The notes below the pieces were generated by a model. That model did not search any database. It had not been told where the DNA came from and saw only the letters and a program-made list of their open reading frames with translations. This document shows, piece after piece, positions 214 to 37,097 of a stretch of 41,454 bases of DNA. How positions within the stretch are numbered: the first letter of the stretch is position 1; each line of letters starts with the position of its first letter. A program made the position numbers and the translations under genes. This DNA comes from a virus (Duplodnaviria; Caudoviricetes): positions 1 to 41,454 of IMG/VR virus record IMGVR_UViG_3300033407_000049. One strand, given 5' to 3'.

Positions 214-459
214 CTGCTATGCAAAAACCCACCATACAGGAATTACTGGACATTATTGCGCACCAAGCCATTCAATTGGTAAAACTTCAGCAACAAAACC
301 ATGAATTGGCTGAAATTGCTCTAAAACACGAAAATTGGATATGGCAAGCAAAAGGTGATGCAAATTACCCCGACAACGTCAGTTTTGACGTCGTATGGGC
401 GGATGCTTTAAAAGCATTGAAACGGTCCAAATTGAAATAACAAGGAGTCACTGCTATGC
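202..459 (+). repeat. 21-nt direct repeat pair (RBS plus start codon) flanking ORF 219-440
   Basis: AACAAGGAGTaACTGCTATGC at 202-222 and AACAAGGAGTcACTGCTATGC at 439-459, one mismatch. Confidence 0.85.
219..440 (+). CDS. hypothetical protein, 73 aa
   Basis: AAGGAG RBS upstream of ATG; packed between neighbouring genes. Confidence 0.75.
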   Translation: MQKPTIQELLDIIAHQAIQLVKLQQQNHELAEIALKHENWIWQAKGDANYPDNVSFDVVWADALKALKRSKLK

Positions 460-2080: not shown

Positions 2081-3678
2081 TGAATGTCACGGCTAAAATA
2101 GATACGCCAGCTCTCCTTGATTATAACTTACGCGATACCTTGGCGACCTGGTTCGTTCACGAGAAGTATTTCCCTAAGATGGTCGCCGACGATCAGTTGG
2201 CAATCTATGAGGAATTGTTCAAACCATCAGTGATCACTCTGCTGCAAACCGAACTGGTCGGGATGCCGATCCTGCCGCACAAGGTGGCCGAAGCCAAACG
2301 CACCCTGACTCGGCTGCAACAAGAGCATCTGACAATCCTGAATAAGTCTCAGTTACTCCAGGAATTCCAGCTTGATGTCAAAGCCCGCAAAGTGGTGGAG
2401 TTTACCGAAGCCGCTAAGAAAAAAGTCTTTACCCTGGATGACCCAAGAATCGAACGCCTGCAGTTCAATCCAGGCAGCAACCAGCAGGTCGCAGAGTTTC
2501 TCTTTGATTATCTCAAACTGCCGATCCTGGATTTGACCGATACCAATCAGCCGGCCGTTGGTATCAAGACGCTGAAGAAGCTCCTGAACCACACGACCAA
2601 ACCGGAGTACCTGGAGATCATCAATGCTCTGATTGATTTGTCCCAGGTAGAAAAGATTCTCTCTTCCTTTATCCCCGCTTTTGAAAACAATTCGGTACAA
2701 CTGCCGGACGGAAGCTGGCGCCTGTATGGCAATTTTAACCTGGGCGGAACGGTTTCAGGCCGTCTATCCAGTTCAGAACCGAACCTGACCAACATTCCAA
2801 GTAAATCCACTTGGGCCGATCTAATCAAGGAGTGTTTTGGCTGCACCATTGGCTGGCTGTTCGGCGGGGCCGACTTCAATTCCCTCGAAGACATGATCTC
2901 GGCGTTAACCACCCGGGATCCCAACAAGATGAAAGTTTACCTGGACGGATTTGATGGTCACTGTCTGCGGGCTTATTCCTATTTCAAGGATCAAATGCCC
3001 GATATCGTTGAAACCGTTACTTCCATTAACAGCATCGCCAAGCTCTACCCGAAACTGCGCCAGCGATCCAAGGAGCCTACTTTCCTGCTCACCTACCAGG
3101 GCACAAAACACGGCCTGATGAACAGTCTGGGTCTGGGCATGGAGGAGGCCGAAAAGATCGAAACCAATTATCACGAACTGTATAAAGTTTCGGATCAATG
3201 GGTGGCCGATCGGCTGCAGCAAGCCTGCGTCGATGGCTACGTCACTGGTGCCTTTGGCTTGCGGCTCAGAACGCCGCTGCTGAAAATGAATGGCCCAGGT
3301 AAGCTCCATTACAAAGCTGCCGCAGAAGGCCGTACAGCCGGCAATATGCTCGGCCAATCCTACGGGATGCTCAATTCCCGGGCGGCCAATGAATTCCGCG
3401 AAAGGGTCTGGGCTTCGCCCTATCGGTATGATATCTTGCTTTGCGGCCAGATCCACGATGCGATTTACGTTATCTGGCGCAACACTGTCGCCATCACCCA
3501 CTGGGTCAATGAGAATTTAATTGCTTGTATGGAATGGGACGGTTTAGTAGAGTTGCGCCATCCCACGGTGAAGGTTGGAGCCGAGCTGGATATTTATTAT
3601 CCCGACTGGGCACACGCAACTACGCTTAAGAACCGCATGACGAAAACTGCTATTTATTCTGTATGCAAACTGCCATAA
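2080..3678 (+). CDS. DNA polymerase (family A), C-terminal part: ExoIII plus polymerase domain
   Basis: GAGGT RBS; ExoIII YNLRD; TVSGRLSSSEPNL; motif A GADFNSLED, motif B RQRSKEPTFLLTYQG, motif C QIHDAIY. Confidence 0.92.
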   Translation: MNVTAKIDTPALLDYNLRDTLATWFVHEKYFPKMVADDQLAIYEELFKPSVITLLQTELVGMPILPHKVAEAKRTLTRLQQEHLTILNKSQLLQEFQLDVKARKVVEFTEAAKKKVFTLDDPRIERLQFNPGSNQQVAEFLFDYLKLPILDLTDTNQPAVGIKTLKKLLNHTTKPEYLEIINALIDLSQVEKILSSFIPAFENNSVQLPDGSWRLYGNFNLGGTVSGRLSSSEPNLTNIPSKSTWADLIKECFGCTIGWLFGGADFNSLEDMISALTTRDPNKMKVYLDGFDGHCLRAYSYFKDQMPDIVETVTSINSIAKLYPKLRQRSKEPTFLLTYQGTKHGLMNSLGLGMEEAEKIETNYHELYKVSDQWVADRLQQACVDGYVTGAFGLRLRTPLLKMNGPGKLHYKAAAEGRTAGNMLGQSYGMLNSRAANEFRERVWASPYRYDILLCGQIHDAIYVIWRNTVAITHWVNENLIACMEWDGLVELRHPTVKVGAELDIYYPDWAHATTLKNRMTKTAIYSVCKLP

Positions 3679-5874: not shown

Positions 5875-5926
5875 TTGTCCTTTACCATAAGATGTGCTAA
5901 GTTAGGCAAAATCTATGGTAAAGGAG
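5875..5926 (+). promoter_or_regulatory. RBS-sequestering hairpin with embedded sigma70-like promoter for the intron endonuclease
   Basis: TCCTTTACCATA (5878-5889) is the exact complement of TATGGTAAAGGA (5914-5925), which covers the AAGGAG RBS; TTGTCC (5875-5880), 17-nt spacer, TAAGTT (5898-5903) with extended -10 TG. Confidence 0.65.
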
Positions 5927-5931
5927 CACTT

Positions 5932-6528
5932 ATGTACAAAGACATCGAAGGGTACGAAGGATTTTATCAGGTAGGCAGTATGGGGGAAATTAAGGCACTA
6001 TCTCGCCGTGTTATTAACAAAAAAGGACGAGAGCAGTTTTACCCAGAAAAACAGTTAACACCTGATAAAGGCCCAAAAGGATATGCCAGGGTTACATTGA
6101 GCAAGAATCATAAAACGAAAAGATTTCTTGTTCACCGGTTGGTTGGTAAAGCATTTGTAAACAATCCAAACAACTGTCCCTGCATAAACCATAAAGATAA
6201 TGATCCATCCAACAATTGTGCTGATAATTTGGAATGGGTAACCCATTCCGAAAATATGATACACGCTCAAGAACAGGGCAGATTGTACACAGCACAATCA
6301 AATGGTGGACGAACAAGAGGTATTTCCGGCATACGGGCAGACGAAAAAATAGCTAAGTTGGTGGGATCTAAAATCAACAATTGGACTGTTCTTCGTTTTG
6401 CTGAATACCGGAAAAATAAAAAATACTTTCATGTTCGATGTTCTTGTGGGAACGAAGTCACAAGAGAACAGCATTATCTGGAAACGTATTCCCAAAATGG
6501 GTGCATTAAGTGCAAAACAAGACTCTAA
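5932..6528 (+). CDS. intron-encoded NUMOD4-HNH homing endonuclease
   Basis: ATG 5932 with AAGGAG RBS; NUMOD4 motif KDIEGYEGFYQVGSMGEIK; HNH motif VHRLVGKAF…INHKDNDPSNNCADNLEWVTHSENMIH; C-terminal CSCG…CIKC; stop overlaps intron element S. Confidence 0.9.
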   Translation: MYKDIEGYEGFYQVGSMGEIKALSRRVINKKGREQFYPEKQLTPDKGPKGYARVTLSKNHKTKRFLVHRLVGKAFVNNPNNCPCINHKDNDPSNNCADNLEWVTHSENMIHAQEQGRLYTAQSNGGRTRGISGIRADEKIAKLVGSKINNWTVLRFAEYRKNKKYFHVRCSCGNEVTREQHYLETYSQNGCIKCKTRL

Positions 6529-11937: not shown

Positions 11938-12510
11938 TTACCTTTCCATGTTTTCTTTCCAGGACTCAAGGTGATGGGAGACAAGACGATTTCCAGTGTA
12001 GCCACACACCTGACACCGGTATCTACCAAAAGTCTTTACGCTCTTAGCCCAATCAATATAGTTTCTGTCCTTTCGTCTATCTGCCCTGTCATTATCAGTC
12101 AACTCGTTGTTGTATCTGGGGTTATTTACCCCGGAATTAAATAATTTACGGTGGCATCCTACGCAGTATTCTTTTCCATGGCTGACGTTTTTTCCACACG
12201 ATTTACACTTATACTTGTTTTGCCATCCACCAGACCACCTGGGATGATTTTCCTTTTTCATGTTTAGGTTCGGGCGTTTCTTGCCTTTCCTCGCGCACGA
12301 CGGGCAGTTGGGGCGGTAATCCCTGTAGTTAATTTCTCTCTCGATACCGCATAGGTCGCATCTTGCTATTACCCTAGCTCGACTTCCCGCTGGGAGTTCT
12401 GACGGAGGTACTCGAATAATTTCTCCAACTTTTATAGTGGATACTTTATTCCGCCAATAGTTGAGGGCAGATCCGTTTATTTGTACAGAAATATACTCGG
12501 TTAATATCAT
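11938..12510 (-). pseudogene. truncated HNH endonuclease with multiple CxxC motifs
   Basis: CDLC, CPSC, CKSC, CVGC; ends CQVCG…LVSHHLESWKENMER*, just after the first His of the HNH motif; ATGA overlap with the upstream fibre gene. Confidence 0.65.
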
Positions 12511-15500
12511 TCGGAATCCCCTATAAAATAGGGCAAGTCTATACGCTTCTGGCCAATCTTTATAGTGTTTCCGTTAAGATCGGTTGTTGCTCCTTCTTGG
12601 TCAATAACTGAAAATTTCGCATCATCTCCCCACGAAGTTCCGTTGTGTTTCATCTCCTTGTAGAGCAACTGAAGATAGGCTTTGCCGTTAGCGCGGGTGA
12701 GGTAGGGGAGGACTTTGGCTGCTGGAGTTGGTGCTACTGTTAAGTCTATGATGCCGTGTAGTACTGGATGCCCCGCTGCTGGGGATAGAACGCCCTCAAA
12801 CAAACTCATTCTAGTAAGGGGTACATTCATAATATGCAGATACGGGCTTATTGATGCCGTAGGAATTTTTCCAATAATATCGGAAATAAGCCCAACGCCT
12901 TGTACCCCTGACGCCGCATTCCCCGCCCACACATCCCCCAAGCTCACCACTTCGGCATTCGTTGCGAGGGTCATCGGGGAGGCTTCGGTGAGGTAGAAGG
13001 TCAACCTGATAACCCCAAGAGCGATAGCTCCAGGCCCTGCAATGTTATTTGTGGCATCCATAGTCTTGGCCGTAAGTACACTCCACGTTGCCCCGCTGTC
13101 GGCTGATTCGAGGATGAGCTTAGTGGTTGTCCCTAGAACCTTACGACTGGCCTTCCATGTCTTACTCGTCCCATCAGGAATCAGGTTCTCGCCATTCTCT
13201 CCCACCAGCAGAGGCGTTCCGGCGATACCATTGTCCTTCCAGGATTGAGGATAATTCGCTGGGTCGCCGATGATGTCGCAGTGGAGGAGGGTTTTGGATG
13301 AAAACGCAGAGTCGCTAGATCCAAGAACTCTTAATTCGTTATAGCTTCTGTAGTTCAGCCCGTCATCGTAAAAGGTGGTAAGAGCAAGTCTGCTCTCAAG
13401 CTGGCTACAAAAGCTTTCTGTGCCGGCGAACTCCGCCCCGTCGCTCAGCCAGTAGACCGATTTCAAAGATAGGCCATTAATGCCGTTATACAGCGGGACT
13501 ATAACAGCAACATCAGTCCCCAACGAGTCTGTTAAACATATTGGCCGTAGCGCACCTTTATATAAAGTAGAAGGCCATCCGGATACGTGATAATTCGTGG
13601 TAGAGTAAGTAAATGGCGCACTATACCTAAACCGCACCGAGAAGTCGTTGCCTAAGTTAACGATCCCGCTTTGATCCCGCTCCCAACCGCGCATCGTTCC
13701 CGCAACAGTCCGAGCGAACTCCTTCTCCAAGAGTCTCTTAAAGTCCTCTGCCCGATGCGCCGAGTTTCTGAGGTCGAGAACATCACGTTCGTTTATTTCA
13801 TCGTAAGATAAGGAATCAGGACGGCCCCTTGTAGTATCTCCAATAGCCCCCGAAGTCTTTCTTACAAGTCCTGCTGTACTTATGCTTTCACTCATGGTAG
13901 AGCTGAAGTCAAAACAATCGGCTACAGATGCCGGATGTGATTTCATGCCTCCACTTGCACCAGACACATGAACCGCGTCATAGAAGTTTGCGGAACCGTT
14001 GGTAATATCAGTAGAACCGAAACTCCAGAAACAGGCTGACCCATTCGGATTAAAAACGGGGTGATACGCACCTTGGTTTCTCCTCTGCACGAGAGCGATA
14101 GGGATAGCGAAGCAGAGTCCTTTGTGGGCTTTGTTTAGCTCCCTCGCATAGAAAACCGTAGGGTCTTGTACCCGGTTAACCACCGCAGTATTGTAAAGGT
14201 TGTAGTCAGTCCAATAGGCTTGATTCTCTTCTCCCAAATCGGCAGAAATACTTGTTGCCTTGCCTTTTGCCGCCGCCCATGCAGTTGGCACACTATAGGC
14301 AAGGCCATATTTATTTCTGTTATAGTGTTTAGCAGAAGCCGTAGTGTTCGACCAAGAACTCCCCAGCCCTTCCACCACTCTGACTCGATACCGCACCTGC
14401 ACAATCTTATTATCAGCCGTGTAATAGAGGTTATTCTCTGGGTCGGCAGCAAAGGCCCGCTTCTGTGCTTCGGTCATGGTTGACCATTTGATGCCCTTAC
14501 CGATCAAAGCAGAAGAGGCTTGCCAGTTACCGAAGAGACTATAGGTACCAAAACCAGTGAACGCCCCGTTAACGCAGGAGATGCCTGTGCCACCTGGGGG
14601 AGTGTAGGAAGTGGCTCCGAACTGTACGTTGCCGTACGGGTAGACAAAGTCCTTCTCGCTGATGTCTTCATGCCACACTTCGAGGAAGACCAGATCCTGA
14701 CGGTCAAGGAGGTCTGCGGTGGCAGGGGCGGGAGGCAGCCACGTCATAACCCGGTCAGCAAAAAATGCGCCGTCTTGTCTTTGTATCCCACTGAGTAAAG
14801 ATCTATACCCATTTGTGCAGATTCTAGGTTTGGTCCCCTCAAAGCCTAAATAAAATATATTTGCGTATAGTGAACCTCCTGCAGTACCTACAGCATTTAG
14901 ACCTTGGTTTACATTTTGATCAGCAGTGGGGGAATTACCTCCCCACTCCACAAACCCACTGCCCGCATACTGACTCCTGCGGTTGGCAGCCAGTGCTTCA
15001 AACGCGGCTTCGGTCATCAGGTTCAGTTTGGTGTCGAGGGTGTCTTTCGTGTAGTAGGTTGCGGCATGATCATGGCTACTGACGGTCCCGGTCAGTTTGG
15101 CCTCGATTTCGCTTTGGAGGATGTCAGAATTCTTCTGGGCATTAGCCGGAGCATGGGCCGAAGCAACGTGAGTCTGGATATTGCTGTTGGCTGCTTCGGC
15201 GCCGATGGCGGCGGGGGTTAGCGCGTCGCTCTGTCCGCTGGCGTGACTGGCCGCATGAGACAACGGTGTACGGCTGTTGGATAGACGGCTGTCGTTGTCG
15301 ACCACCAACGGATTATCCGCACTCGCAGTAACGGGGAACGCCGCCTTTTCGTCGTCAGTCGGCAGGTTATCGTGTTCGTAAGTCTCGGTGTGATTGACTG
15401 GTGTGTAGCGTTTATCCAGTTCTGCCTGCGAGACATTGCCGGTGGATCCACCCGGCTGTTCGACCAGGTACTCGGTTTCTGTGTCTGGTACGATATTGGG

Positions 15501-15521
15501 GTAATCTGAAACCGTTTTCAT
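12507..15521 (-). CDS. putative tail fibre / receptor-binding protein, ~1004 aa
   Basis: ATG 15521 with AAGGAG RBS; fibre-type N-terminal motifs (DSRLSNSRTPLSHAASH, LTPAAIGA, HDHAATYYTK); large beta-rich body. Confidence 0.75.
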   Translation of the reverse strand: MKTVSDYPNIVPDTETEYLVEQPGGSTGNVSQAELDKRYTPVNHTETYEHDNLPTDDEKAAFPVTASADNPLVVDNDSRLSNSRTPLSHAASHASGQSDALTPAAIGAEAANSNIQTHVASAHAPANAQKNSDILQSEIEAKLTGTVSSHDHAATYYTKDTLDTKLNLMTEAAFEALAANRRSQYAGSGFVEWGGNSPTADQNVNQGLNAVGTAGGSLYANIFYLGFEGTKPRICTNGYRSLLSGIQRQDGAFFADRVMTWLPPAPATADLLDRQDLVFLEVWHEDISEKDFVYPYGNVQFGATSYTPPGGTGISCVNGAFTGFGTYSLFGNWQASSALIGKGIKWSTMTEAQKRAFAADPENNLYYTADNKIVQVRYRVRVVEGLGSSWSNTTASAKHYNRNKYGLAYSVPTAWAAAKGKATSISADLGEENQAYWTDYNLYNTAVVNRVQDPTVFYARELNKAHKGLCFAIPIALVQRRNQGAYHPVFNPNGSACFWSFGSTDITNGSANFYDAVHVSGASGGMKSHPASVADCFDFSSTMSESISTAGLVRKTSGAIGDTTRGRPDSLSYDEINERDVLDLRNSAHRAEDFKRLLEKEFARTVAGTMRGWERDQSGIVNLGNDFSVRFRYSAPFTYSTTNYHVSGWPSTLYKGALRPICLTDSLGTDVAVIVPLYNGINGLSLKSVYWLSDGAEFAGTESFCSQLESRLALTTFYDDGLNYRSYNELRVLGSSDSAFSSKTLLHCDIIGDPANYPQSWKDNGIAGTPLLVGENGENLIPDGTSKTWKASRKVLGTTTKLILESADSGATWSVLTAKTMDATNNIAGPGAIALGVIRLTFYLTEASPMTLATNAEVVSLGDVWAGNAASGVQGVGLISDIIGKIPTASISPYLHIMNVPLTRMSLFEGVLSPAAGHPVLHGIIDLTVAPTPAAKVLPYLTRANGKAYLQLLYKEMKHNGTSWGDDAKFSVIDQEGATTDLNGNTIKIGQKRIDLPYFIGDSE

Positions 15522-15529
15522 AGAGCTCC

Positions 15530-15805
15530 TTACCAACGGGCGTAAATAGGATTGCCGTCGCTATCGTAGATTACAAATCCACCGGTATCTGCCAGAAAGG
15601 CGGCGTGCTGACTATCAGATAAATTCATTATCGGCATGAAGCGCCTCTTTATCCCCATTCCTTCCACCAATAGGAAACGGGAAAGAGCGCGCTCAGACCC
15701 TTTCAATATAAAGGGATACGCCTGTATTGCTTCCAATCTCAGCGCCGTAGAAGCAATCACACATGTAGCCAGGGGCTGCAGATGCAGGACTATGATTAGT
15801 CCCAC
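15530..15805 (-). CDS. hypothetical tail-module protein, 91 aa
   Basis: GTG start overlapping the upstream gene; fills the operon gap. Confidence 0.5.
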   Translation of the reverse strand: MGLIIVLHLQPLATCVIASTALRLEAIQAYPFILKGSERALSRFLLVEGMGIKRRFMPIMNLSDSQHAAFLADTGGFVIYDSDGNPIYARW

Positions 15806-16125
15806 AGAGCGCCGCCTTCGGTCTTCACTTCACCCGAATTCACCAGGGAGATAAAGCCGTCTGGATCCAGCGCCAGCAGGTACCAGGTTAGGCCGCTGTC
15901 CGGCAGATCCGCCAGGGTTGCCTGCAGCGAATTGAACCATACCCGATTAGTCAGTGTCAGATCTTGTACGCTAGCCACCGACAGATGCTCGGTACCCTCG
16001 GCATCCAGGACCTTGATCTTGAACTGCCAGGCCGAGACATCCAGCGGCAGCTTGTTCTGGGTGAAGTCCACGTACTCGTGGAAATCGGTGTGGGTGCGGA
16101 TCGTGGTGATATTTTTTAACGCCAT
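15796..16125 (-). CDS. small beta-sandwich structural protein (BppU-N-like, fibre-associated)
   Basis: GGAG RBS; PLDVSAWQFKIKV…TWYLL…NSGEV pattern; location in the tail module. Confidence 0.55.
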   Translation of the reverse strand: MALKNITTIRTHTDFHEYVDFTQNKLPLDVSAWQFKIKVLDAEGTEHLSVASVQDLTLTNRVWFNSLQATLADLPDSGLTWYLLALDPDGFISLVNSGEVKTEGGALWD

Positions 16126-16155
16126 AATAGTGTCTCCGTGAATTGTTGAAAGAAA

Positions 16156-16899
16156 CTATTCCGATAACGAGTATATATCTACTGTAAGCGTTTTTGTGCG
16201 ATTAGGAGAGTACCAATTCCACTGCCCCTCGAAGCACATAAGTCTTACAACATTATACTGTCCGGCATTATACCTAATACCATACATATTATAAATATAT
16301 GAGTAGTACACTGTGCCCCCTTCTAACATGAAAGGGTTTTCGTCATAATAAATATCACCGTGTGTTTTGCACACCCAATTAATCGGTATAATTACTGGCG
16401 GGGACACAAAATTTCTGTTTATTGTGACATCTCTTTTCGTGTGTTGTTCTAGTAATGCAGAATACCTATTGACATATTGGAGCTGTTCGCCATTACTTAC
16501 AAAAGACAGTTTGTTATTACTGCTATAAGTAATAAGCCCGTAATCATCTATTTTATCGGCGTTGTCGTTTCCTTGGCTCAAAACATAAATGTAAATGTGA
16601 CGACTGGTTTCTCCATTGGTGTGGCCATACAATAAAAATTTTACCTTTACCTCAGTGTAACCTACTCCTGGGGTGAACACGGATTCTGTTTGTGCTACTG
16701 CAACACAATTTACAGGAGTTACCGCAATAAGGGGTTTTTCGCTAAAAACTTTATTTAAAGAAAATGAAAGCGTTGTTGGGTGGTCAGTATCTGAAGCAAT
16801 ACTTCTTACATAAGTTTGATGAAGAATCAAACAACTCTTTTCAGAATCTATGAGTATTTCTCCCGACGGGTTCTTTATTTGTAAACCAAATGTTGCCAT
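16156..16899 (-). CDS. tail-tip-associated protein with two related domains
   Basis: FGLQIKNPSGEILIDS and YGLITYSSNNKLSFVS motifs, typical of proteins encoded after tail-tip fibres; AT-rich. Confidence 0.65.
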   Translation of the reverse strand: MATFGLQIKNPSGEILIDSEKSCLILHQTYVRSIASDTDHPTTLSFSLNKVFSEKPLIAVTPVNCVAVAQTESVFTPGVGYTEVKVKFLLYGHTNGETSRHIYIYVLSQGNDNADKIDDYGLITYSSNNKLSFVSNGEQLQYVNRYSALLEQHTKRDVTINRNFVSPPVIIPINWVCKTHGDIYYDENPFMLEGGTVYYSYIYNMYGIRYNAGQYNVVRLMCFEGQWNWYSPNRTKTLTVDIYSLSE

Positions 16900-16902
16900 A
16901 AA

Positions 16903-17511
16903 TTACCCGCAAGCCAGTATAGTAATGTCTGCCGAAGGATCAACTGAAGGGTAAGTATCTTTTGTTGAGTCAATCCATTCCTGCCATATCTCAAAATAGG
17001 TATATAAACCGTTTTCTAAAAATATTTCATAATTTGCGCCGGTAAATCGCGCATAATCGGTAGAGGTCAATGCACTAAATCGCATGTTAATTATAAGTTT
17101 CGGCTCTATTGTTAACGGTATCTGCAAATAATGTCGCTGTCTGTTGGACCATTGGTACACAACAATATTTTCTATTACTTCCGATACCCGGACATTTCGT
17201 GTAAATCCGTCACAAATAATGCCTCCACTGGTATTGTAAATAAGACAGCCGTATTCCAAATTTTTGATAGGAATTGCTGGTCCAGTAACCTGGTCCAGCA
17301 TTTTTACTGCACTCGCAGATGGTGGAGAAGACTCCCAATATTGTGGCCAGATTGCTTCTACGGGACAAGTGGGTTGACACGCACCGCACGAAACACAGAG
17401 TCCATCATCTATTACATAAGATGAGGAACCTTCTTCGATCGCATTATACGGACAATCACCAACACAAGCGCCGCAATTTATACAGTAATCTGGGGAAATA
17501 TAATAAGACAT
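16903..17511 (-). CDS. 2[4Fe-4S] ferredoxin domain fused to a tail-tip-associated domain
   Basis: Residues 1-56 carry CINCGACVGDCP and CVSCGACQPTCP; Ser/Pro linker; then YGCLIYNTSGGIICDG, resembling the motifs of the neighbouring gene. Confidence 0.85.
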   Translation of the reverse strand: MSYYISPDYCINCGACVGDCPYNAIEEGSSSYVIDDGLCVSCGACQPTCPVEAIWPQYWESSPPSASAVKMLDQVTGPAIPIKNLEYGCLIYNTSGGIICDGFTRNVRVSEVIENIVVYQWSNRQRHYLQIPLTIEPKLIINMRFSALTSTDYARFTGANYEIFLENGLYTYFEIWQEWIDSTKDTYPSVDPSADITILACG

Positions 17512-17520
17512 TGCCTGCCT

Positions 17521-19029
17521 TTACGTTAGTTTACCCATACGCACACGCAAATTACCACTGGCGTCATAAACACGAAAATCATTGGTTGCGCCGTCAATAA
17601 TGACTTTACCATTCGGCGTAAAATCGTCATCTGTTTGAAATTTGGCGCCTGTCAGTAAGGTCGTATTTATTTTTCCAGCACTGACAATATCTGTGCTAAG
17701 TGCATCCACTGCGACGGTGCCGTGTATAATCATATTTCCGTCAATAGCTTCAGTAATCAGCCCGCTGAAATGGGTAGCCAGTACCGTAATGTACTGCTCG
17801 GTAGCTGCTCCGAGATACACGCGAGTTCCGGCTAACTGCGCACTCACATCGGTTACCGTAATCTTGTCGTTGGGCCGTAAAGTGCTATCATTGGTCAGTC
17901 CAGATAGGATCATGTCACGGGCGACCGCCTGGGCTGCTTCATTGGTCAGCGTACCTGCCCAACTGGCGGCTACCGCAGGAGTGATATAGGTTGTCCCCGC
18001 GTCACTTTCTTCAAAGACGAAAGAATTACTGCCACGCGGACCTGACGCCCCATTGGCGCCGCGAATGGCGATAGCCAGGCCCCAGCCTATCCCGGTACCA
18101 TCATCGACCTTCTGGCTCATCCAGCCGGCTTCTGCGGTGGCGTTGGTATGCCAGCCGTTGCTGTCACCGGCGATGTTATCCGGAGGTACCGGAGCGATCC
18201 CTTGGGGATCAGCATCGTGATAGGTGATATAGACGGATAAGCCGTTTGCCCCTGCTGCCCCTGCGACGCCGTCATTGCCATCCAGAAGCATCACTTCCCA
18301 GGCATCCATAGCGGTGTAGATATAGACCACATGGTTGTCCGTATCCCGGTACGCCCAGTTGATTTGTGGATCAGCGGGAGGGGTGGCCAGATCGCCTTTC
18401 CAGACAATCGAGACACCTTCTTGCCCATCAATCCCATCAATCCCATCAATGGTCATCTGATACCAGACACCGTCCCAGAAGATATAGCTGCGTTTGTTCG
18501 CGGTATTCTTGTAAGAGAAACCGTCTTCGGCTCCCAAGGGATGGGCATCCGCTTCGCCCAGCCAAACGATCGAAGTGCCATTATTACCATTTACCCCATT
18601 GGATCCGTTCAGACCGGCAACGCCCGGTAAACCGGGTAAGCCGGGATCGCCTTTGTCGCCCTTTTCGCCGGTACTGCCGAGCGATCCATGCCGGACAAAC
18701 AATACCGGCGGACTCCAGACGTCCTGTTGCGGAGCTAGCCCGTCACTGGTAAAGAATCGCGATGACGCAAAGACCGGATCGGTCCCGGGCAAAATGGTAT
18801 GGGTCCAGGTGCCGCCATCCGGAATCGGAAAGGTCCAGCCACCGCCTACCGGGGTAACCGGCACCGTGGACGAACGACGATAAACCATGGACATGAACTG
18901 CCCCTGGCCGGCCGTACCATTTGTCCACTGCTCGATCTGCGCATCCGTGACAAAGCGATTGTTTGCATCCTGCGAAATGACTTCAGGAGGATGACTGCCT
19001 TCGGCACCGTAATTTTTGATATCCGCCAT
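17521..19029 (-). CDS. collagen-like tail fibre with gpJ-like C-terminus, 502 aa
   Basis: Gly-X-Y runs (GEKGDKGDPGLPGLPGVAGLNGSNG…) between repeated SIVW(L/K)G modules; C-terminal IDGNMIIHGTV…RVYDASGNLRVRMGKL. Confidence 0.8.
   Translation of the reverse strand: MADIKNYGAEGSHPPEVISQDANNRFVTDAQIEQWTNGTAGQGQFMSMVYRRSSTVPVTPVGGGWTFPIPDGGTWTHTILPGTDPVFASSRFFTSDGLAPQQDVWSPPVLFVRHGSLGSTGEKGDKGDPGLPGLPGVAGLNGSNGVNGNNGTSIVWLGEADAHPLGAEDGFSYKNTANKRSYIFWDGVWYQMTIDGIDGIDGQEGVSIVWKGDLATPPADPQINWAYRDTDNHVVYIYTAMDAWEVMLLDGNDGVAGAAGANGLSVYITYHDADPQGIAPVPPDNIAGDSNGWHTNATAEAGWMSQKVDDGTGIGWGLAIAIRGANGASGPRGSNSFVFEESDAGTTYITPAVAASWAGTLTNEAAQAVARDMILSGLTNDSTLRPNDKITVTDVSAQLAGTRVYLGAATEQYITVLATHFSGLITEAIDGNMIIHGTVAVDALSTDIVSAGKINTTLLTGAKFQTDDDFTPNGKVIIDGATNDFRVYDASGNLRVRMGKLT
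18424..18450. repeat. perfect 9-nt tandem repeat x3
   Basis: (CCCATCAAT)3, encoding IDG-IDG-IDG on the minus strand. Confidence 0.8.
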
Positions 19030-19040
19030 ACGCTCTCTTT

Positions 19041-22000
19041 CTATTCGCCCAAACCGGAACCGAGTTTGCTGAGCAGATCGATATACAGTACGCCCCCGAC
19101 ACTGGAAGCGGCTGCGGTTCCAGCCGTACCGATATTCTGGAAAAGGCCCTTGGTGACCCCGGGAATCGAGTTGATGATGTTATCACCCACTCCGGTTGCC
19201 GAACCCAGCAAAAAGACGGACAGTGCGGTAAAGGGTGCATCCAGCAAGACATTCTTGATATGCTTGAGGACCCGGAGCTGGTACTTCGAGAAGAAGACCA
19301 GACCAATCGAATTGGCGTATTCTATGGATTTGTGTGTCGGTAAGTCAAAGTTTATAAACTTGTCGACTACTGTCGCCACCGCATCCCGATGTTCCATGCC
19401 CTTCTTCTGGGTGAGGTGTTTGTACATGACGTAACGCCCGACGTAGTCAGTCATCTTCACCGCATTGTTCATCATACGAAAACCTTCGGTATCCTGGGTC
19501 ATGAAAAGGACCCGGATGGCTTTCTCCATCTTAGCCGGCATCTTCTTCAGCAGCGTATCCAGGCCCTTATCCAGCCCGTAAGTATAGGGCGACTCGTTCT
19601 GGACGGTATCCACGTCATCGACAATGGAGGGCAGCAGTCCTGCCTCGATCATTGCCTTGGAAGGATTCCTTGCCAATTCGTCTTCCAGCCGAGCAATATT
19701 CCGATCCAGCACTTTGAGCTGCTGGGCTTTATCCACTGCATTGATGCTTTCCTTGGCCGCCAGGATGTTTCGCTGGATGGTGGCGGAAGTAAACTTCTGG
19801 TGCAACGACTGGTAGAGCAGGGCGCTGTTGATCGCTTCCCGAGAACCTTTCAGGATCTCATGGATCGGAACCCCGTGCGAGAGCAACAAGGCGATGTTGC
19901 TCAGGTAGTTGCCGTGGATAACTTTCAAATTACGCACCACGATATTACTCTTGGCCAGGCTGGTTAACTGGGTAAGGAATTCTTCACCTCGTTTGGCTCG
20001 TACCACAGCTCGACCGACTTGTTTATCTTTGCGCATCTGCGCCGAGTCGGTCGCCAGGTCATTCAACGAACTCTTGTAGAAAGGATTATCCCAGCCTAAA
20101 GCGAAGGTCAGCACCTCTTTGACCGAGCGTCCGATCAACTTCTGCTCGGAACTGTTCTTGCTGAAGACTTCCGTAATGCTGTATTTATTCTGTCCGAAAG
20201 CCAGGGTGATCATATCCCGACTGACCATCATCCCGTCGCGTCCCCAGACCGATTTGATCTGGGCGCGCATCTTGTCTGGCAGCCGGAAGTAGATTTCTCG
20301 CAGATCCTTATCTGTCGAGGTCGGAGAAATATCGACGAAGTCGAGAGGATACTTCTCAAACTGCGCATCGTAGAAATCCTTCAAGGCGGAGACGACTTCC
20401 TTGTTCACTACAGGAGTCATCTTCTTGTCCACGATCTGGCTGGCCATGGCGCCAAGGACCGCATCCACTTCGGAGAACTGTTGCAGGACGGTATCCTTGG
20501 TATGCTCGTTCATCATGTAACGGGTACCCAGCATTCGACCTTTGTCGTCGTAGTGCGGAATGACATAATTTTTGGCCCCGGTCGGAACATAAGGCTTGCG
20601 GGGGGTACTCTTGTACATCTTCTCCAGCGTGGCCTGCACAGTAGCCATCAAATGCTTCTCGTTCTGTTCAGCCTTAGCCGGCGCCGTGATAAAATTACCG
20701 ATCTGTTCCTGGACACGAAGAGCATCCGAACCCTTCTTGGTATTGGTGGTCAGCGAGGTAATCCCCGACTGAAGCGGATTGATCGTTCCGGTCAGCGACT
20801 TGAACATATAGATATCTTCTTTAACCAGATCGTTTGGATCCCTCTGAATGGGCGATTGCTCCATGGTGTAACCCATGCGGGTAAAGCGGGCCTGATCATG
20901 AATCGTGCCCTGCTCGTACTGCACTCGATCATTGAGGATCTGTTTGATATAGCCCTTCTGCATCTTGCCCGGCTGGTTATGAAAGGTTTCCTTGAGGGCT
21001 TCGGCTTTGAGCAGATTGTGCTGCACCAGGATATTTTCAAAACCCTGCCAGTTGTCCTGCATCAGCTCCACCAGGATCTGTCGATCCCGGGTCGGTACAT
21101 AGCGCAGCGAAGAAAGGGTCGCCAATTCATCGATAATGGTGATTGCCTTGGTGAGATGTTCTCCCTTCAAAGTCCCTGCGGTTTTCAAGCCATCCATCAC
21201 CGCAATGTTGTGGGCATTCAGCAACGGTACACCGTCGGCACGACGGGCGCCGTGGATCATGTAATAACCCAGATCGTCAGCAGCCTTTTCGAAGAAATGA
21301 CGGTGAGGACGCAAGGCCGGGTCGTTGAGCAGTTGCAGCATCAGGGCCGCAATCCGGTCTTCCCGGACCTGCTCACTACCTACTAGATCGATCAGCACAT
21401 CCTTGCCGGTACTATCCAGTAAAGAACTCAGATCGGTCTTCAGGCCGACCCTGGTGTAGACCTCTTTCTGTTTGGCCGTGACACCGGGCTTCAACCAAGA
21501 ATTAACCTCTGCCCGGATACCATCGGCTACCTCCACCTTGGCGGTATCGAGCACCCGCTTACGCCAGCCCAGCATTTCATGGAAGGTCTGTAGCCGAGGC
21601 GTCAAACCGCGTACCTCACCCATTACACTGGCCATAAAGCCCTCAGTACCATCCTTGTCGTTCATCCAGTTAAGCGCACGGCGGGTCTGGTAGGAGAGGT
21701 AGTTATCCGCTTCGTGTAGATCGCTGACCTTGAGGACGAGCTGACCAACCTTGCGGCTCTTGATGATCTTGGTGGCTGTCTCCTTGACCTTGTCGTCAAC
21801 TTTAATACCGAGTGCAGCCACTTTGTCAGACCCCTTGACGAACGTGGCGTAGATGCCCGATTTGGCCCTTACGTCGATCTCGGACAAAGCACGAACCAGA
21901 TTCTCCAGCTCGACATCCGCTTGGGTGGCATGCTGCTGTTTGTAGAACTGGGTATGGATAAAATCCATGATCTTGTTGAATAGATTAACCACCGACTGCT

Positions 22001-25000
22001 GGATGTTCTTTTCAAAGACACCGAACAAAGCGGTGCTCTGTTTCTTCGGCGGAATCTCCAGGGTCGCCAAGGCCCGCTTGAAGTTCTCGTTGGTTAAACC
22101 AAAGGCAAGGAATTCCGCGACACCTCGGTTGCTACCATCTGTGTTACGATCAGGGGCGAAGATATACGCCCAGCGTTCTTTGGCGGCCAGCACTTCGAAG
22201 GAATTGTTCGGATCGGTAATATCCGCTTCGGGATCGTTCATGAACACGCGGAAGGCGTTGGCGCCGTAGGCTGTTTCAAAAGTATCCCGGGCCAGCTCGT
22301 ACAGATTGGTAGCTTGTCCGCGCAGATAGGGCGACAGCTTGTAGCCACTTTGGATAATATGGTGGACGATCTCGTGAGCGTAGACTTCCCCTGCCGACAT
22401 TCGGATGCCGTGTCCGAGCATTCCCGACTTGGGTGCCGTGGAGAGTTGCTGGGTCTGCAACCAGATCTTCTTCTCTTCGCCGACATAGAGACCGTGGGTT
22501 TCCTGGTCGATCTTGTGCGTGCCGATAAAGAGCTGTATCGGTGTCATGACCCGGGCCACGATGTCGTTCATCACCCGGACCAGATGATTTTTATGATCGG
22601 GCGATACCGCCACACTGCCGTAACCGGCCTGGGCATCTTGCTGCAGAACCGTCTCCAGAACTTCGGCCACGTTCAGAGCATCAACCTTGGTGGTATTTGG
22701 ATAATCCGCTTCCAGAGGTTTCCCCGGGCTTTGCTGACTGGATCCCTGGGTGTCCGAATTCTGTTGTGCGGCCTCACCGTCCTTGCGGTCTTTCAGCCAG
22801 GCAGCGGTTGCCATGACGTTGTCCGCATCCACTGCTGTCACCGTATCTCGGTTGACACCCAGGACCGTATCAGCGGTTATGTCCACGCCTTCCGGATCGT
22901 AGCCAAAACCAGAGTTGGAGTATTGAGCCATCCTGGTAACGTAGGGCATCAGGGCCTTCTTGTTGTCCGTTACCTGCTGGGCAATATCCTTGGCTTGCTC
23001 ACCAATTTTTATAAGGGCGTCTTTGACTGCCTGTTGATAGCCAATCTTGGATAGCGCACTCTTGATTGCTCCAGGTAAGCCGGTCTTGTAATTACCGGAA
23101 GCACTGGCTTCTTGGGTAATACTTTTGATCTGTTTATCAAGGAAAATGTCCCGAGTTTCCGGATCGGGATTCTTACCGATAAAATGCGCTTCGGTGATTA
23201 GGTCTGCTGCCAGTTCCTTTTCAATGGCGCGTTCCTTGATCAAGGAGTCCAAGACCTCTTCCGACTTGATTCCCATTTCCTGGGCCATTTTACGCGCTGC
23301 CGTCAGAGTGCTTTCGTGCATCTTGACGATCTCTTCACCCATGCTGTAGCTGTTCATGATGCGAAAGAATTCTTGATTGGCTTGTTTTCCCACGATTCCG
23401 CTGTCAGTAATTCGGTGACTGAAACCATCATGGTTATTGAGGATATCGATATCCAGTCCCATCAGATGATTGGCTATCATTGAATCCAGCATGTGAATAA
23501 TACGGATAATCGGTGCCACACCGGGAGGATCCAGAAAAGGAATCCCTTCAGGGGTACCCTTGTGTTTCACCACAGTACCATTTTGATAGTTCTGCTCTAC
23601 TGCTGATTTCTTGGCGAAGAGTTTATCTTTGCCGGAAGACACCAACTGCAGGTAACTCGGATTGTCCTCGCGGTTAATCGGAGTCGGAATCTTCGGCATC
23701 AGCGGCTCCAGTTCCTCCAGGATCTGGGCCAGTTCCTTTTTGGTAAGCTGTTGCAGCTTGGGAGACTTGCGAAGGATTGCTTCATCCTTTGGATGGAGTT
23801 CTCCCTTCTGTACGCGCAATGCAGCCAATGCAGCCCGCACCTTACTCTCCAGTTTGGCTTCGACTTTGGCTTTTAGCATAGTGTTGTACATCACCACGGA
23901 AACATTGATCGCATCCAGTAAAGTCTTGCGGGCTTCGATGACCGGCGCATAAACGATATTGACTGCTTCACTCATCGCCTTGCCGTAGGTAGCATTGGCT
24001 GCGGTTTCAATCGCGGCAATTTCAAGATCCTTGAACTTGAACTTCAGCAGTTCATCGATGTTGAGAGCGTTCTCGGGTGTCAGATACTTTTTGATATCGT
24101 GAACTTCCTTGCCCAATAGGACGTTGATATTTTTCAGCAGCTTGTCCAGCCGCTTCAGTATTTCGCTATTGGTTGGCCGATCGGCGGGGCTCTCTTCCAG
24201 CAGGTAATCCTGGGCGATCTTTTCGATCTTGGCGTAAATGCCATCGTTGATCAGATCGACATCGGCAAAGAGTTTCGACTGGCTGAAGAGTCCGGCACCG
24301 AAAGTCGTCTGCATGGTGCGTGGTTTGGAGAGATTGCGGACGATCTTATTGATCACCCCACTCTCGTCAGAGAAAGAACCAAGGATTTCACCGATAGCGT
24401 CGGTGACGTCCAGTTGGTAATCGAGCCGATCTTTGACAAAGGAATCCTTCAGCAGCTCGATCTGTTTCGCCCATTCCTGACCCATGCGCTGGTAGGCGTC
24501 ATTGAGGAACCGGTTATCCGGGCCGATCAGGGTATCCAGGTTGGGTGGATTGCGGGAGACGCTGACACCGGCCATGGCCAGTGCCGCCAGTTTCTCCTGC
24601 ATAGCCTGGGCAATTGTTTGTCCCGGCATAGAACCTTTGTTTGACAGCAGCATCATCAACAGCATGGTGGGGCCGTTGCTGACGCCGTCGATCTCTTTGT
24701 AGAGATCGGTGGTGAATGGCTGGGCACTATCCTGGGCGTGGTTCAGATAGCGAGCATACTCCTGCAGTCCCTTAAAACCATGCAGCTTCATGCCACTGGC
24801 TTCCACTCCGACCGCGATGGCCTGCATCAGTTCGGTGGTCATCTCTTTCGTGCGGTCGAATTCCTGCAATGCTTCGATAGCCGGCAGCAGGGCATAGTGT
24901 TTCTTCTGGTCCTTGGCGGAGAGATTCTCCGGATGGTTGAACAGGTTATTCAGGGCTTCTAGTTGGCCCTCTACGCTATTGTACTTGGCTGACTCGATAT

Positions 25001-26675
25001 CCAGGGCTTGCGCTACGGCTTCAAAGAAAGCGCGTTCTGTGCCCTGTTTATCCACGAAGGAGACGATATCGTGTTCCGGAGCAAACGATACTTTCCAGCT
25101 CGACGGTGCGAAGAGATTGCGGATCACTTTGGAGTTCTGTGGATTGATATAGCCACGCATCAGCATCCGCATATTGCTGATAAAGTCACTGAGGATAAAG
25201 AAGGTATTCTTGTCTGCAGCCTTGGCCTGTTTCAGAAACGTCCGGACATGCTTGATGGTCCGGTCCACATCCTTGTTAATACTCTGGACGCTCTTTTCCC
25301 GGGTGAGGAGTTTGCCTGCCATGGACTCCTTACCAAAGATTGTGCCAAAGGCTTCCAGAGCCAGCGGATCGGCGGTCGCTTCATCGGCCACCAAGGCATC
25401 CATCGCTTCGAAGGCGCTCATGCTCGGCGTCGCGGAGGTCCACTCCGTATCCACGTAATTCTGGATATTTTTGTGCTGCTGCGGACTGATCGCTCCGACG
25501 GTACGACCGGCGCGCATGGTCTTGGGCAAGGGAATCTTGCCGAAGGAGTAACGCAGGGTCTGCGGTTCGTTGTTAAACAGCTTTTCAAAGATATCCGGCG
25601 CCAGGTTCAGTCGTTCCTCGATCTCTTCTACCAACGACAAAGGTTTGGCGTTGTCATTGGGATTGCGGCGCAATACCGTGGACGTGATGTACCCACTACC
25701 TTCGCGGGTTTTATGCACCGCATCGCTGTAGAACAGATCGTTATGGGTGACTGGTAGATATTCTTGCAGCTTCTTGAATGCCCCAATAAACATATCCTGG
25801 CGCTCAACCACGCCCATCTGTTCCAGTCCGGCAATCGCCATCAGACCCAGTGACATCTCCAGCCGGGACTTGCCCAGAGCATCGGCATTTTCCGTGGGAG
25901 TAATCGCCAGCCGTTCTAGTACGGTGCGCCCCAAAGCTTTCGCTAGAGACTCAGTATTCGTTCCCAGTCCCTCCAATAGTTCCAGGGTAGCCTTGGGTAT
26001 ATCCGAATCCTTGGGCCAGCCCAGCAGCTCACGCAGCATGTCCTGGGACTGCTCACCCATGGCCGTACGGGTCGCATCATTGCCCAGCCATTCGTAGACG
26101 GTCGCCGAGATCGCTTCTTTAACGGCCGGATCCAGATAGGCCGAAAGAGCTTTGGCATCCGCGTCATGTTCAGCGAAGTATTGGATCATATCCTCATGTC
26201 GGAAAGCCTTGGAAGAGCCTTCCTTGACCCGGAAGATCGCATCCAGCGCCACCGACATATCGGCATCGAAGACTTCATCGAAGTGGTTGAGGACATTGCG
26301 TTCTGCCGGATTCAAAACCATGAACCGGGCCGCTGCCTGGTAGATGCTGCCGGCCCGCTGCACCAGATTCTGCATCAGGAGCTTCAGACCGCCGACGGGT
26401 TTGAATTCGTTCAGCTCGTTGGACGGATCTTCCGGCCTGGAGGTAAACCGGGTAGCCGGTACAGCCTCCAGCAAAACCTGACGGTTCTGTTTATGCTGCT
26501 CCTTGACACCAGTACGGATTGCCTTCAACTGGGCGATGTGCGCTTCCATGGCGACCCGGGCCAGATCCCCTCGGCCCGCTTCCACAGCAGTTTTGACACT
26601 GGCCGGAAGACGGTCTTCGGTTCTTCCTTTGCCGTGGATATTCACGCAGCTTTGCAGCGAGCCTTTGGTAGCCAT
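19041..26675 (-). CDS. virion RNA polymerase (N4 gp50-like): polymerase plus C-terminal domains, 2544 aa
   Basis: MRMLMRGYINPQNSKVIR; motif A EIDGVSNGP; motif B RNLSKPRTMQTTFG; motif C NNHDGF; HEIVH motif; vRNAP-type C-terminus (MIEAGL…DYVGRYVMYKHL…FINFD). Confidence 0.92.
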   Translation of the reverse strand: MATKGSLQSCVNIHGKGRTEDRLPASVKTAVEAGRGDLARVAMEAHIAQLKAIRTGVKEQHKQNRQVLLEAVPATRFTSRPEDPSNELNEFKPVGGLKLLMQNLVQRAGSIYQAAARFMVLNPAERNVLNHFDEVFDADMSVALDAIFRVKEGSSKAFRHEDMIQYFAEHDADAKALSAYLDPAVKEAISATVYEWLGNDATRTAMGEQSQDMLRELLGWPKDSDIPKATLELLEGLGTNTESLAKALGRTVLERLAITPTENADALGKSRLEMSLGLMAIAGLEQMGVVERQDMFIGAFKKLQEYLPVTHNDLFYSDAVHKTREGSGYITSTVLRRNPNDNAKPLSLVEEIEERLNLAPDIFEKLFNNEPQTLRYSFGKIPLPKTMRAGRTVGAISPQQHKNIQNYVDTEWTSATPSMSAFEAMDALVADEATADPLALEAFGTIFGKESMAGKLLTREKSVQSINKDVDRTIKHVRTFLKQAKAADKNTFFILSDFISNMRMLMRGYINPQNSKVIRNLFAPSSWKVSFAPEHDIVSFVDKQGTERAFFEAVAQALDIESAKYNSVEGQLEALNNLFNHPENLSAKDQKKHYALLPAIEALQEFDRTKEMTTELMQAIAVGVEASGMKLHGFKGLQEYARYLNHAQDSAQPFTTDLYKEIDGVSNGPTMLLMMLLSNKGSMPGQTIAQAMQEKLAALAMAGVSVSRNPPNLDTLIGPDNRFLNDAYQRMGQEWAKQIELLKDSFVKDRLDYQLDVTDAIGEILGSFSDESGVINKIVRNLSKPRTMQTTFGAGLFSQSKLFADVDLINDGIYAKIEKIAQDYLLEESPADRPTNSEILKRLDKLLKNINVLLGKEVHDIKKYLTPENALNIDELLKFKFKDLEIAAIETAANATYGKAMSEAVNIVYAPVIEARKTLLDAINVSVVMYNTMLKAKVEAKLESKVRAALAALRVQKGELHPKDEAILRKSPKLQQLTKKELAQILEELEPLMPKIPTPINREDNPSYLQLVSSGKDKLFAKKSAVEQNYQNGTVVKHKGTPEGIPFLDPPGVAPIIRIIHMLDSMIANHLMGLDIDILNNHDGFSHRITDSGIVGKQANQEFFRIMNSYSMGEEIVKMHESTLTAARKMAQEMGIKSEEVLDSLIKERAIEKELAADLITEAHFIGKNPDPETRDIFLDKQIKSITQEASASGNYKTGLPGAIKSALSKIGYQQAVKDALIKIGEQAKDIAQQVTDNKKALMPYVTRMAQYSNSGFGYDPEGVDITADTVLGVNRDTVTAVDADNVMATAAWLKDRKDGEAAQQNSDTQGSSQQSPGKPLEADYPNTTKVDALNVAEVLETVLQQDAQAGYGSVAVSPDHKNHLVRVMNDIVARVMTPIQLFIGTHKIDQETHGLYVGEEKKIWLQTQQLSTAPKSGMLGHGIRMSAGEVYAHEIVHHIIQSGYKLSPYLRGQATNLYELARDTFETAYGANAFRVFMNDPEADITDPNNSFEVLAAKERWAYIFAPDRNTDGSNRGVAEFLAFGLTNENFKRALATLEIPPKKQSTALFGVFEKNIQQSVVNLFNKIMDFIHTQFYKQQHATQADVELENLVRALSEIDVRAKSGIYATFVKGSDKVAALGIKVDDKVKETATKIIKSRKVGQLVLKVSDLHEADNYLSYQTRRALNWMNDKDGTEGFMASVMGEVRGLTPRLQTFHEMLGWRKRVLDTAKVEVADGIRAEVNSWLKPGVTAKQKEVYTRVGLKTDLSSLLDSTGKDVLIDLVGSEQVREDRIAALMLQLLNDPALRPHRHFFEKAADDLGYYMIHGARRADGVPLLNAHNIAVMDGLKTAGTLKGEHLTKAITIIDELATLSSLRYVPTRDRQILVELMQDNWQGFENILVQHNLLKAEALKETFHNQPGKMQKGYIKQILNDRVQYEQGTIHDQARFTRMGYTMEQSPIQRDPNDLVKEDIYMFKSLTGTINPLQSGITSLTTNTKKGSDALRVQEQIGNFITAPAKAEQNEKHLMATVQATLEKMYKSTPRKPYVPTGAKNYVIPHYDDKGRMLGTRYMMNEHTKDTVLQQFSEVDAVLGAMASQIVDKKMTPVVNKEVVSALKDFYDAQFEKYPLDFVDISPTSTDKDLREIYFRLPDKMRAQIKSVWGRDGMMVSRDMITLAFGQNKYSITEVFSKNSSEQKLIGRSVKEVLTFALGWDNPFYKSSLNDLATDSAQMRKDKQVGRAVVRAKRGEEFLTQLTSLAKSNIVVRNLKVIHGNYLSNIALLLSHGVPIHEILKGSREAINSALLYQSLHQKFTSATIQRNILAAKESINAVDKAQQLKVLDRNIARLEDELARNPSKAMIEAGLLPSIVDDVDTVQNESPYTYGLDKGLDTLLKKMPAKMEKAIRVLFMTQDTEGFRMMNNAVKMTDYVGRYVMYKHLTQKKGMEHRDAVATVVDKFINFDLPTHKSIEYANSIGLVFFSKYQLRVLKHIKNVLLDAPFTALSVFLLGSATGVGDNIINSIPGVTKGLFQNIGTAGTAAASSVGGVLYIDLLSKLGSGLGE

Positions 26676-27946: not shown

Positions 27947-28431
27947 AAAGGAGTCCCCGAAGGAATAGATTGCACGAGTTTCACTAAACCATGCAATATG
28001 GACCAGACTTGATTAGCCAAGAAGTAGACCATTGCCAGAATTACTGCTACCTGAACTTTGTCAAATTTTCCGTCTACATTGGGGGAAAGTGACTTACGCA
28101 ATTTGCATGATTCTGGGGAAGGGTGACCTACAAGATGCGTTTGTACTTTCTGATCCAGTTCCCTCATAACATTTTCCAGATGAGCAGCTTCTTCTCGCTG
28201 TATCTTGTATAGAGTATCGATATCCCGCTGATTGTCCGCCGTGCGATCCGCTAAAGCCACCAACCGTTCTTGTTGTTTGGCGATGTCGATCAAAGCACCA
28301 ACCATTCGCTTTTGGTCATATCTGAACTCTTGGACACTTTCGAGTAATTGATTCAGTATTGGACCTTTGTCGCAAGCATCAGCAGTCATAGAAAACCCTG
28401 TCGTTGTGTAGGAGAAAAGGGTGATCGTCAT
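27943..28431 (-). CDS. coiled-coil protein with C-terminal TM helix (lysis-cassette protein)
   Basis: ATGA overlaps at both ends; heptad-rich N-terminus, TM segment VQVAVILAMVYFLANQVWSIL. Confidence 0.65.
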   Translation of the reverse strand: MTITLFSYTTTGFSMTADACDKGPILNQLLESVQEFRYDQKRMVGALIDIAKQQERLVALADRTADNQRDIDTLYKIQREEAAHLENVMRELDQKVQTHLVGHPSPESCKLRKSLSPNVDGKFDKVQVAVILAMVYFLANQVWSILHGLVKLVQSIPSGTPL

Positions 28432-37083: not shown

Positions 37084-37097
37084 GGAAGCCTCTCCTA

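Follow-up and report, generated by a model that had tools for sequence, protein, structure and literature searches.

Why would a tailed phage carry a complete bacterial ferredoxin in one reading frame with what resembles a component of its own tail tip? The question is raised by a gene in a linear virus genome of 41,454 nt that is 55% complete (IMG/VR record IMGVR_UViG_3300033407_000049), the whole of which we analysed and refer to here as the window. The original prediction, made from the letters alone, held that the virion tip might display Fe-S clusters to bind redox proteins or iron receptors on the host surface or to gate adsorption by oxygen state, and took the fusion to suggest an anaerobic host.

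The fusion gene and its assembly

The gene lies directly after the collagen-repeat fibre gene, as originally noted, starting 9 nt past its stop and ending 3 nt ahead of the gene for a 247-residue protein (Table 1). Its second domain starts at residue 85 with LEYGCLIYNTSGGIICDG. When considering the three candidate starts, Shine-Dalgarno energies are -3.7 kcal/mol for M1, -2.5 for M71 and +2.2 for the TTG codon at L85. The start of the second domain thus lacks a usable Shine-Dalgarno sequence, which makes M1 the likeliest start, and as M1 has the best of the three, about as strong as those of the two neighbouring genes (fibre and gp54-type), full-length protein is likely made. No RNA dataset is listed as carrying the region, and a search for promoters and terminators gave no excess. 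A perfect 14 nt inverted repeat (15745-15758 and 17350-17363) suggested an inversion switch, which we rejected after finding a comparable repeat in 358 of 1500 shuffles.

Since the fusion is found in one sample only, it might be a chimera or frameshift that joins a bacterial ferredoxin to a phage gene. However, a second assembly (a Logan contig of 4,435 nt at depth 43, unbranched) agrees with positions 16052-20486 throughout (0 differences, 0 gaps), at a depth that stays flat over the junction. It has no stop or frameshift between the domains, which bears out the in-frame fusion proposed originally, and the codon composition of the gene is continuous with that of its neighbours, making an artefact of this kind extremely improbable. 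The region is present in one run only, a soil metagenome (here X1) that is possibly the source sample, so that the contig, while it counts against a chimera or frameshift, is no second, independent find.

Composition also says something of the history of the region. Core genes have a GC3 of 0.55-0.74, and this falls to 0.29-0.36 over the stretch that takes in the final 60 fibre codons, the ferredoxin, the linker, the second domain and the 247-residue gene. The drop suggests that the tip cassette is a swapped module, with a ferredoxin (0.30) that matches the composition of the rest of the cassette (0.33-0.36). This match, together with the lack of any contig at least 80% identical to the ferredoxin domain among those from run X1, argues against a fresh capture. 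The same run has contigs at 4-13x of related, diverged phage DNA (13170-16081), which align to the flanks and not to the tip cassette (16100-18400); these co-occurring relatives may carry another cassette.

Table 1. Features of the window discussed in the text
Feature	Position	Strand	Remarks
Fusion ORF	16903..17511	-	ATG start, 202 aa, no internal stop
2[4Fe-4S] short-chain (clostridial-type) ferredoxin domain	17344..17511	-	Residues 1-56; Pfam Fer4 x2, PDB 1fca/1fdn
Linker, 28 residues, Ser/Pro/Ala-rich	17260..17343	-	Residues 57-84; contains in-frame ATG (M71)
Likely gp55-type adaptor domain, 118 residues	16903..17259	-	Residues 85-202; cassette position and motif
Collagen-repeat fibre, 502 aa	17521..19029	-	Pfam Collagen, PHROG tail fibre; gp56/gpJ-type straight-fibre end motif at C-terminus
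Two-repeat gp54-type protein, 247 aa	16156..16899	-	phrog_4062, phrog_3370
109-aa gene after cassette	15796..16125	-	No family (Pfam, PHROG); GC3 0.74, core-genome level again
1009-aa virion-type protein	12507..15536	-	phrog_14489, phrog_2824, phrog_2012; Vibrio phage relatives; DEV long fibre gp53 slot by position
Virion RNA polymerase-family gene	19041..26675	-	phrog_2206; marks phage as N4-like
Major capsid protein	38334-39764		Schitoviridae-type phage matches, e.g. LUZ7, VBP47

An N4-like phage

A PHROG search of the window finds a virion RNA polymerase-family gene, an N4-type capsid, a primase and a polymerase. The giant virion RNA polymerase and N4-type capsid that define the Schitoviridae are both present (phrog_2206, phrog_1357), the capsid protein being 52-63% identical to N4-like phages among the matches listed (e.g. 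VBP47 and LUZ7), and we assign the window to a Schitoviridae (N4-like) phage.

Several genes of this phage are interrupted or divided. Two genes match phrog_2206 (28428-31352 and 19041-26675, minus strand), the first, of 974 residues, its N-terminal part and the second, of 2544 residues, its C-terminal part, and endolysin and holin genes lie between them. The related contig L215 has a polymerase form of ~2577 residues too, and L216 the usual 3470-residue form; the giant N4 polymerase appears to be split in this clade. Adjacent ORFs of 152 and 238 residues (36367-37556, minus strand) cover successive parts of phrog_2050, and we read the pair as one virion structural gene in two pieces. A low-GC HNH endonuclease gene (1418-2080) splits DNA polymerase A between its exonuclease and polymerase parts (456-3678, plus strand), and a second HNH gene (5875-6528) lies ahead of the primase.

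A DEV-like receptor-binding cassette

The neighbourhood of the fusion closely follows a module of Pseudomonas phage DEV (Schitoviridae, Litunavirus; PDB ID: 9ZE4), which is of the same virus family type. According to the available text of the DEV study (PMC12892993), gp56, gp55 and gp54 are co-transcribed and essential, and the model places one gp55 and one gp54 on the tip of the gp56 trimer, near the receptor LptD. There gp55 is described as an adaptor near LptD loops 9 and 11, disordered in the map and taken from AlphaFold3. DEV and the window have in common the order fibre-small-large followed by a gene of ~1000 residues, the fibre-end motif, the gp54 family (phrog_3370, to which gp54 of DEV belongs as well) and the N-terminal motif of the small gene. 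They differ in the fibre body, which is collagen-like in the window and gpJ-like in DEV, and in the small gene itself: gp55 of DEV has 99 residues with no extension, whereas that of the window has an 84-residue extension of ferredoxin and linker ahead of a divergent domain of 118 residues. Similar small genes are described after gpJ in siphophages (in the available part of PMC13035648).

Both neighbours can be placed by homology. A profile of the fibre end matches the C-terminus of DEV gp56 in the PDB (9ze4_N, E 0.0038) and 9l9p_S (E 0.017), and the 502-residue fibre is likely a trimeric scaffold. The 247-residue protein matches phrog_3370 (E 3.3e-4) and an 18-row gp54-type profile from which it had been excluded (E 2e-9), and is likely the main receptor-binding subunit. 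The pattern recurs among relatives. A close relative (L002) with a fibre 59% identical has the same gene order, the fibre being followed by a 92-residue and then a 226-residue gene, and nothing on its contig matches Fer4; in L215 the fibre end differs and the small-large gene pair is absent. The three-gene pattern is also seen in L219, L220, L214 and most of the 29 loci found with the fibre-end profile, none of which has a ferredoxin motif (three of the 29 had no ORF called downstream). Single genes with several repeats of the hairpin motif follow the fibre end in two loci (L241:3069-4454, 462 residues, and L244:3273-4358, 362 residues), and are apparently fused gp55- and gp54-type modules. 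Ahead of the 1009-residue gene of the window lies a short frame (15530-15640, minus strand) whose end resembles the gp55/gp54 hairpin motif and which matches both profiles weakly; it may represent a remnant or else a small gene connected with the fibre.

The fusion gene occupies the position of gp55, between a fibre with a gp56-type end motif and a gp54-type gene, and as no other gp55-type gene lies between the two the slot is filled by the fusion. Residues 86-110 contain the N-terminal hairpin motif YG-x-x-I/V-x-N/D-x-x-G-x-x-I/L-x-D with which DEV gp55 also begins. An hhalign comparison to a 17-row gp55-type profile aligns these 25 residues only, with p 0.0012 and a probability of 19.6% (95.6% for DEV gp55 with the same small-gene profile), and with two profiles lacking the window sequence its score is reached by 5 and 11 of 2000 shuffles. 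The match falls at the very start of the profile, which is the expected place. Among the 515 frames of the window, the gp55-type profile gives the fusion ORF an E of 1.1, which is not significant, and a profile of 18 gp54-type proteins ranks it second (E 0.12). The parallel with the adjacent 247-residue protein that had been claimed originally thus holds at the level of the motif, while a BLASTP comparison of the two gives no match.

Beyond the motif there is little to be recognised. Residues 85-202 match no Pfam or PHROG family, and an alignment-based model of the domain has a pLDDT of 56, reaching ~90 across the first 20 residues (the first hairpin only), compared to 32 for a single-sequence AlphaFold model. 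Foldseek with the alignment-based model gives no match at E 0.001 or lower; the viral rows at the top of its list, none significant, are mostly phage proteins of 93-128 residues. The gp55- and gp54-type profiles match no solved structure, and an Atlas feature search with the whole protein or the C-terminal domain gives no usable match. At 202 residues with an 84-residue extension, the protein also departs from the single domain of ~90-135 residues usual for gp55-type proteins. Position in the cassette and motif lead us to file the C-terminal domain as likely gp55-type, and thus as the likely adaptor of a DEV-like receptor-binding fibre; the tail-tip identity first proposed for it is therefore retained in this form, with no significant fold or family match to the domain as a whole.

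The low hhalign probability and the want of a significant fold match could also mean that the domain is not a gp55 adaptor, or that it never enters the virion and the gene encodes a late non-structural product, and the proteins matched by Atlas features, at just 0.90-0.91, are small viral ones, a minority of them labelled Gp53-like/H-lectin. We consider this decidedly improbable, given that the motif falls where expected, at the beginning of the gp55 profile, that the neighbours are gp56- and gp54-like, and that gp55 is essential in DEV according to the available text (PMC12892993). The domain (16906-17259, minus strand) has cysteines at two motif positions where relatives have hydrophobic residues (Cys89 and Cys100) and a third near the C-terminus (Cys201), and a disulfide or metal site at these three is possible.

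The ferredoxin domain

The identification of residues 1-56 as a complete 2[4Fe-4S] ferredoxin is confirmed. The two CxxCxxCxxxCP motifs, at C10/13/16/20 and C39/42/45/49, are complete and have all eight cysteines, and the spacing (C10-P21 and C39-P50, with 17 residues between) is that usual in short-chain bacterial ferredoxins. Pfam Fer4 matches the segment twice (E 1.6e-14), and the best small-protein matches in the PDB are 55-residue ferredoxins (PDB IDs: 1fca; 1fdn; 1clf). Of the columns conserved in 11 bacterial ferredoxins 23 of 24 are retained, compared to 8 of 32 variable columns, and in a tree the domain sits on an end branch of 0.98 against a median of 0.21, with no supported donor clade.

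Where the domain differs most is in its surface residues. Ferredoxins dock on redox partners via an acidic surface, and exposed Tyr or Trp are typical of binding surfaces. Over the compared span the fusion ferredoxin has 7 acidic residues, against 12-16 in 28 of its 30 best Desulfobacterota matches, and 7 aromatic residues, against 0-3 in all 30. The contrast in acidic residues is smaller in the 11-row bacterial set, where counts are 7-13 and the fusion lies at the low edge. With 7 acidic residues it lacks the strongly acidic surface of a soluble carrier, and with roughly half of that surface lost it is less likely to be at work as a normal electron carrier. Low GC3 does not work against Asp and Glu codons, and the lost acids are therefore not accounted for by base bias. 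The pattern fits a retained scaffold with a new surface, though an unsampled, atypical donor could yield the same divergence.

The closest ferredoxins are 54-59% identical in a genome scan and 60-61% identical in a sample of 401 Desulfobacterota genomes (best 61 bits). Overall, the best matches (54-61%) are short ferredoxins of Desulfobacterota, Bacillota and a spirochaete, and the best in a sample of 401 Pseudomonadota genomes scores only 43.6 bits, which points to an anaerobic donor. The anaerobic host of the original prediction is thus partly supported as regards the donor of the ferredoxin; the 401 Desulfobacterota genomes yielded no CRISPR spacer, seven short DNA matches in them lying outside repeat arrays. 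The gp54-type family phrog_4062 is absent from the same 401 genomes and occurs in 2 of 301 genomes sampled from Burkholderiales, and endolysin matches are uninformative on the host.

A single example

We sought the same architecture elsewhere, as had been suggested for viral metagenomes, and no search returned a second fusion. Homologue searches with the whole protein or the C-terminal domain retrieved only the protein itself (1 of 27 candidates), no homologue of either was found among viral contigs, and 1.84 billion cluster representatives again gave only the protein itself; a further match, to the adenylate-kinase repeat P0003, proved spurious. A metagenome scan found the same contig only (L217), a further match (L218) being an unrelated ferredoxin-alcohol-dehydrogenase-like gene. 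Among 113 other matches to the gp55 profile (50-235 residues only), none has a Pfam domain and 112 start at most 18 residues from the motif. The match of the fusion itself was left out of this count as circular, a row of the profile being from the window. These searches rely on short exact words, and distant fusions can escape them.

Approached from the other side, ferredoxins on viral contigs are plentiful. We considered 142 loci (62 plus the best 80 of 302; L071-L132 and L251-L330), which contain 103 distinct motif-bearing ORFs, all of at most 120 residues, and no gp56-end, gp55- or gp54-type match. Stand-alone phage ferredoxins (phrog_16249, phrog_8732) resemble the window in having a phage-borne Fer4 domain, but within these 62 plus best 80 of 302 loci they are free, acidic proteins. 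The first 62 loci hold a large family of stand-alone ferredoxins of ~102 residues that have a loop inserted, and the viral contigs on which they lie reach ~300 kb. The ferredoxin-adaptor fusion is at present a singleton, known from one genome, and there is accordingly no cross-lineage sign of selection; nor did the limited literature that we searched contain a description of a ferredoxin extension of a gp55-type subunit.

Such a distribution might be expected of a tolerated passenger. A host ferredoxin gene would have entered the variable tail cassette, lost its stop and come to ride on the adaptor, serving at most as a late cytoplasmic electron carrier in the manner of stand-alone phage ferredoxins. 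Stand-alone ferredoxins are common on viral contigs, as the 103 ORFs above attest, and the cassette, in which L002 and L215 differ, has the marks of a swapped module. We nevertheless hold this to be unlikely, as all eight cysteines and 23 of 24 conserved columns are retained while acidic residues are halved and aromatics more than doubled, the low GC3 does not account for the lost acids, and the composition of the ferredoxin has been homogenised with that of the cassette.

Possible display and roles of the ferredoxin

If the C-terminal domain is the likely gp55-type adaptor, display of the ferredoxin at the fibre tip becomes plausible. The protein would be made in full from M1 and its clusters loaded in the cytoplasm. 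Present as a single copy, the gp55-type domain would clamp the receptor-binding subunit onto the trimeric fibre end via its hairpin; the ferredoxin would then sit next to that subunit at the end of a 28-residue tether. On the host, which would be Gram-negative and probably anaerobic, the partner of the ferredoxin might be a protein of the outer surface, e.g. a protein-importing TonB-dependent transporter or a surface cytochrome. We think it probable that the full-length fusion is incorporated into the virion, and, given display, a binding role for the ferredoxin would be slightly better than an even chance. The complete proposal, in which the ferredoxin is an accessory binding domain whose clusters act as a folding scaffold rather than an electron relay, is our tentative choice and falls somewhat short of even. 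In this form the host-surface binding first proposed is favoured by the altered ferredoxin surface, and nothing was found for the redox sensing or oxygen gating proposed with it.

A precedent for binding comes from the pectocins M1 and M2, which, according to the available text, bind their receptor FusA by a plant-like ferredoxin domain (PMC5095587), and FusA-related import systems are described as widespread (in the available part of PMC6793856). As in the pectocins, an N-terminal ferredoxin is fused to a domain of a bacterial killer. The likeness is an analogy only: pectocins are soluble bacteriocins that join a plant-like ferredoxin to a cytotoxic domain, while the window has a bacterial Fer4 dicluster fold on a tail-type domain of a putative phage structural protein. 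We know of no receptor for a 2[4Fe-4S] ferredoxin, and FusA takes the plant-type protein, a different fold. That the domesticated ferredoxin is a bait, bound by host surface proteins for iron scavenging or extracellular electron transfer in a phage counterpart of the pectocin trick, is a bolder extension that we consider unlikely. If true, it would imply that anaerobic Gram-negative bacteria have a receptor for 2[4Fe-4S] proteins, with oxygen-sensitive infectivity as a side effect.

Two further points count against the accessory binding role. Initiation at M71 could yield an adaptor free of ferredoxin, and the DEV suppressors that restore growth on an lptD mutant, as reported in the available text, are in gp54 and not in gp55 (PMC12892993).

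A structural or assembly role would make equal use of the surface aromatics, placed in an interface within the virion: a compact, metal-stabilised domain might pack on the fibre tip or help the adaptor to fold, perhaps being cleaved later. Fe-S clusters are known in the tail-tip proteins lambda gpL and RcGTA gp13, where their function is unsettled according to the available part of the report (PMC10721106), and the window phage would resemble these in having such clusters at the tip, its proposed location. As described there, however, gpL and gp13 have one cluster held by four cysteines in a siphophage hub protein, and neither a ferredoxin fold nor a receptor-binding adaptor (PMC10721106); the fusion has no match in Pfam or PHROGs to a gpL family, the type with that hub fold and four C-terminal cysteines. 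The unusual divergence of the gp55-like domain might suit a partner of this kind, but 112 of the 113 other gp55-profile matches, starting so close to the motif, need no such domain, and a 28-residue Ser/Pro linker seems better suited to a tether than to a packed core. We regard a structural role as quite unlikely.

Dicluster ferredoxins are oxygen-labile, and with the closest matches coming from anaerobes one can imagine a gate, in which oxidation or loss of the clusters alters the tip and switches adsorption or tail unplugging. The DEV module couples receptor binding to tail unplugging in the available account (PMC12892993), and so could offer the means. Against this, it is hard to see how a domain on a tether would pass a change on. 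The fusion is also known just once, and the searches produced nothing in support of gating, which we consider very unlikely.

Implications

Though the cassette is known from DEV, the ferredoxin extension appears to be new, with one example in one genome to date. For N4-like phages, a description of the gp56-gp55-gp54 module as the device coupling receptor binding to tail unplugging dates only from 2026. A gp55-type subunit joined to a metalloprotein domain suggests that this site is likely able to bear cargo, and it may have a part in recognising the host. The three small genes could be co-expressed, making the question directly testable with neither phage nor host. If the ferredoxin does bind the host, it would represent a new phage route to anaerobic hosts, and would point to a surface receptor that has so far gone unrecognised.
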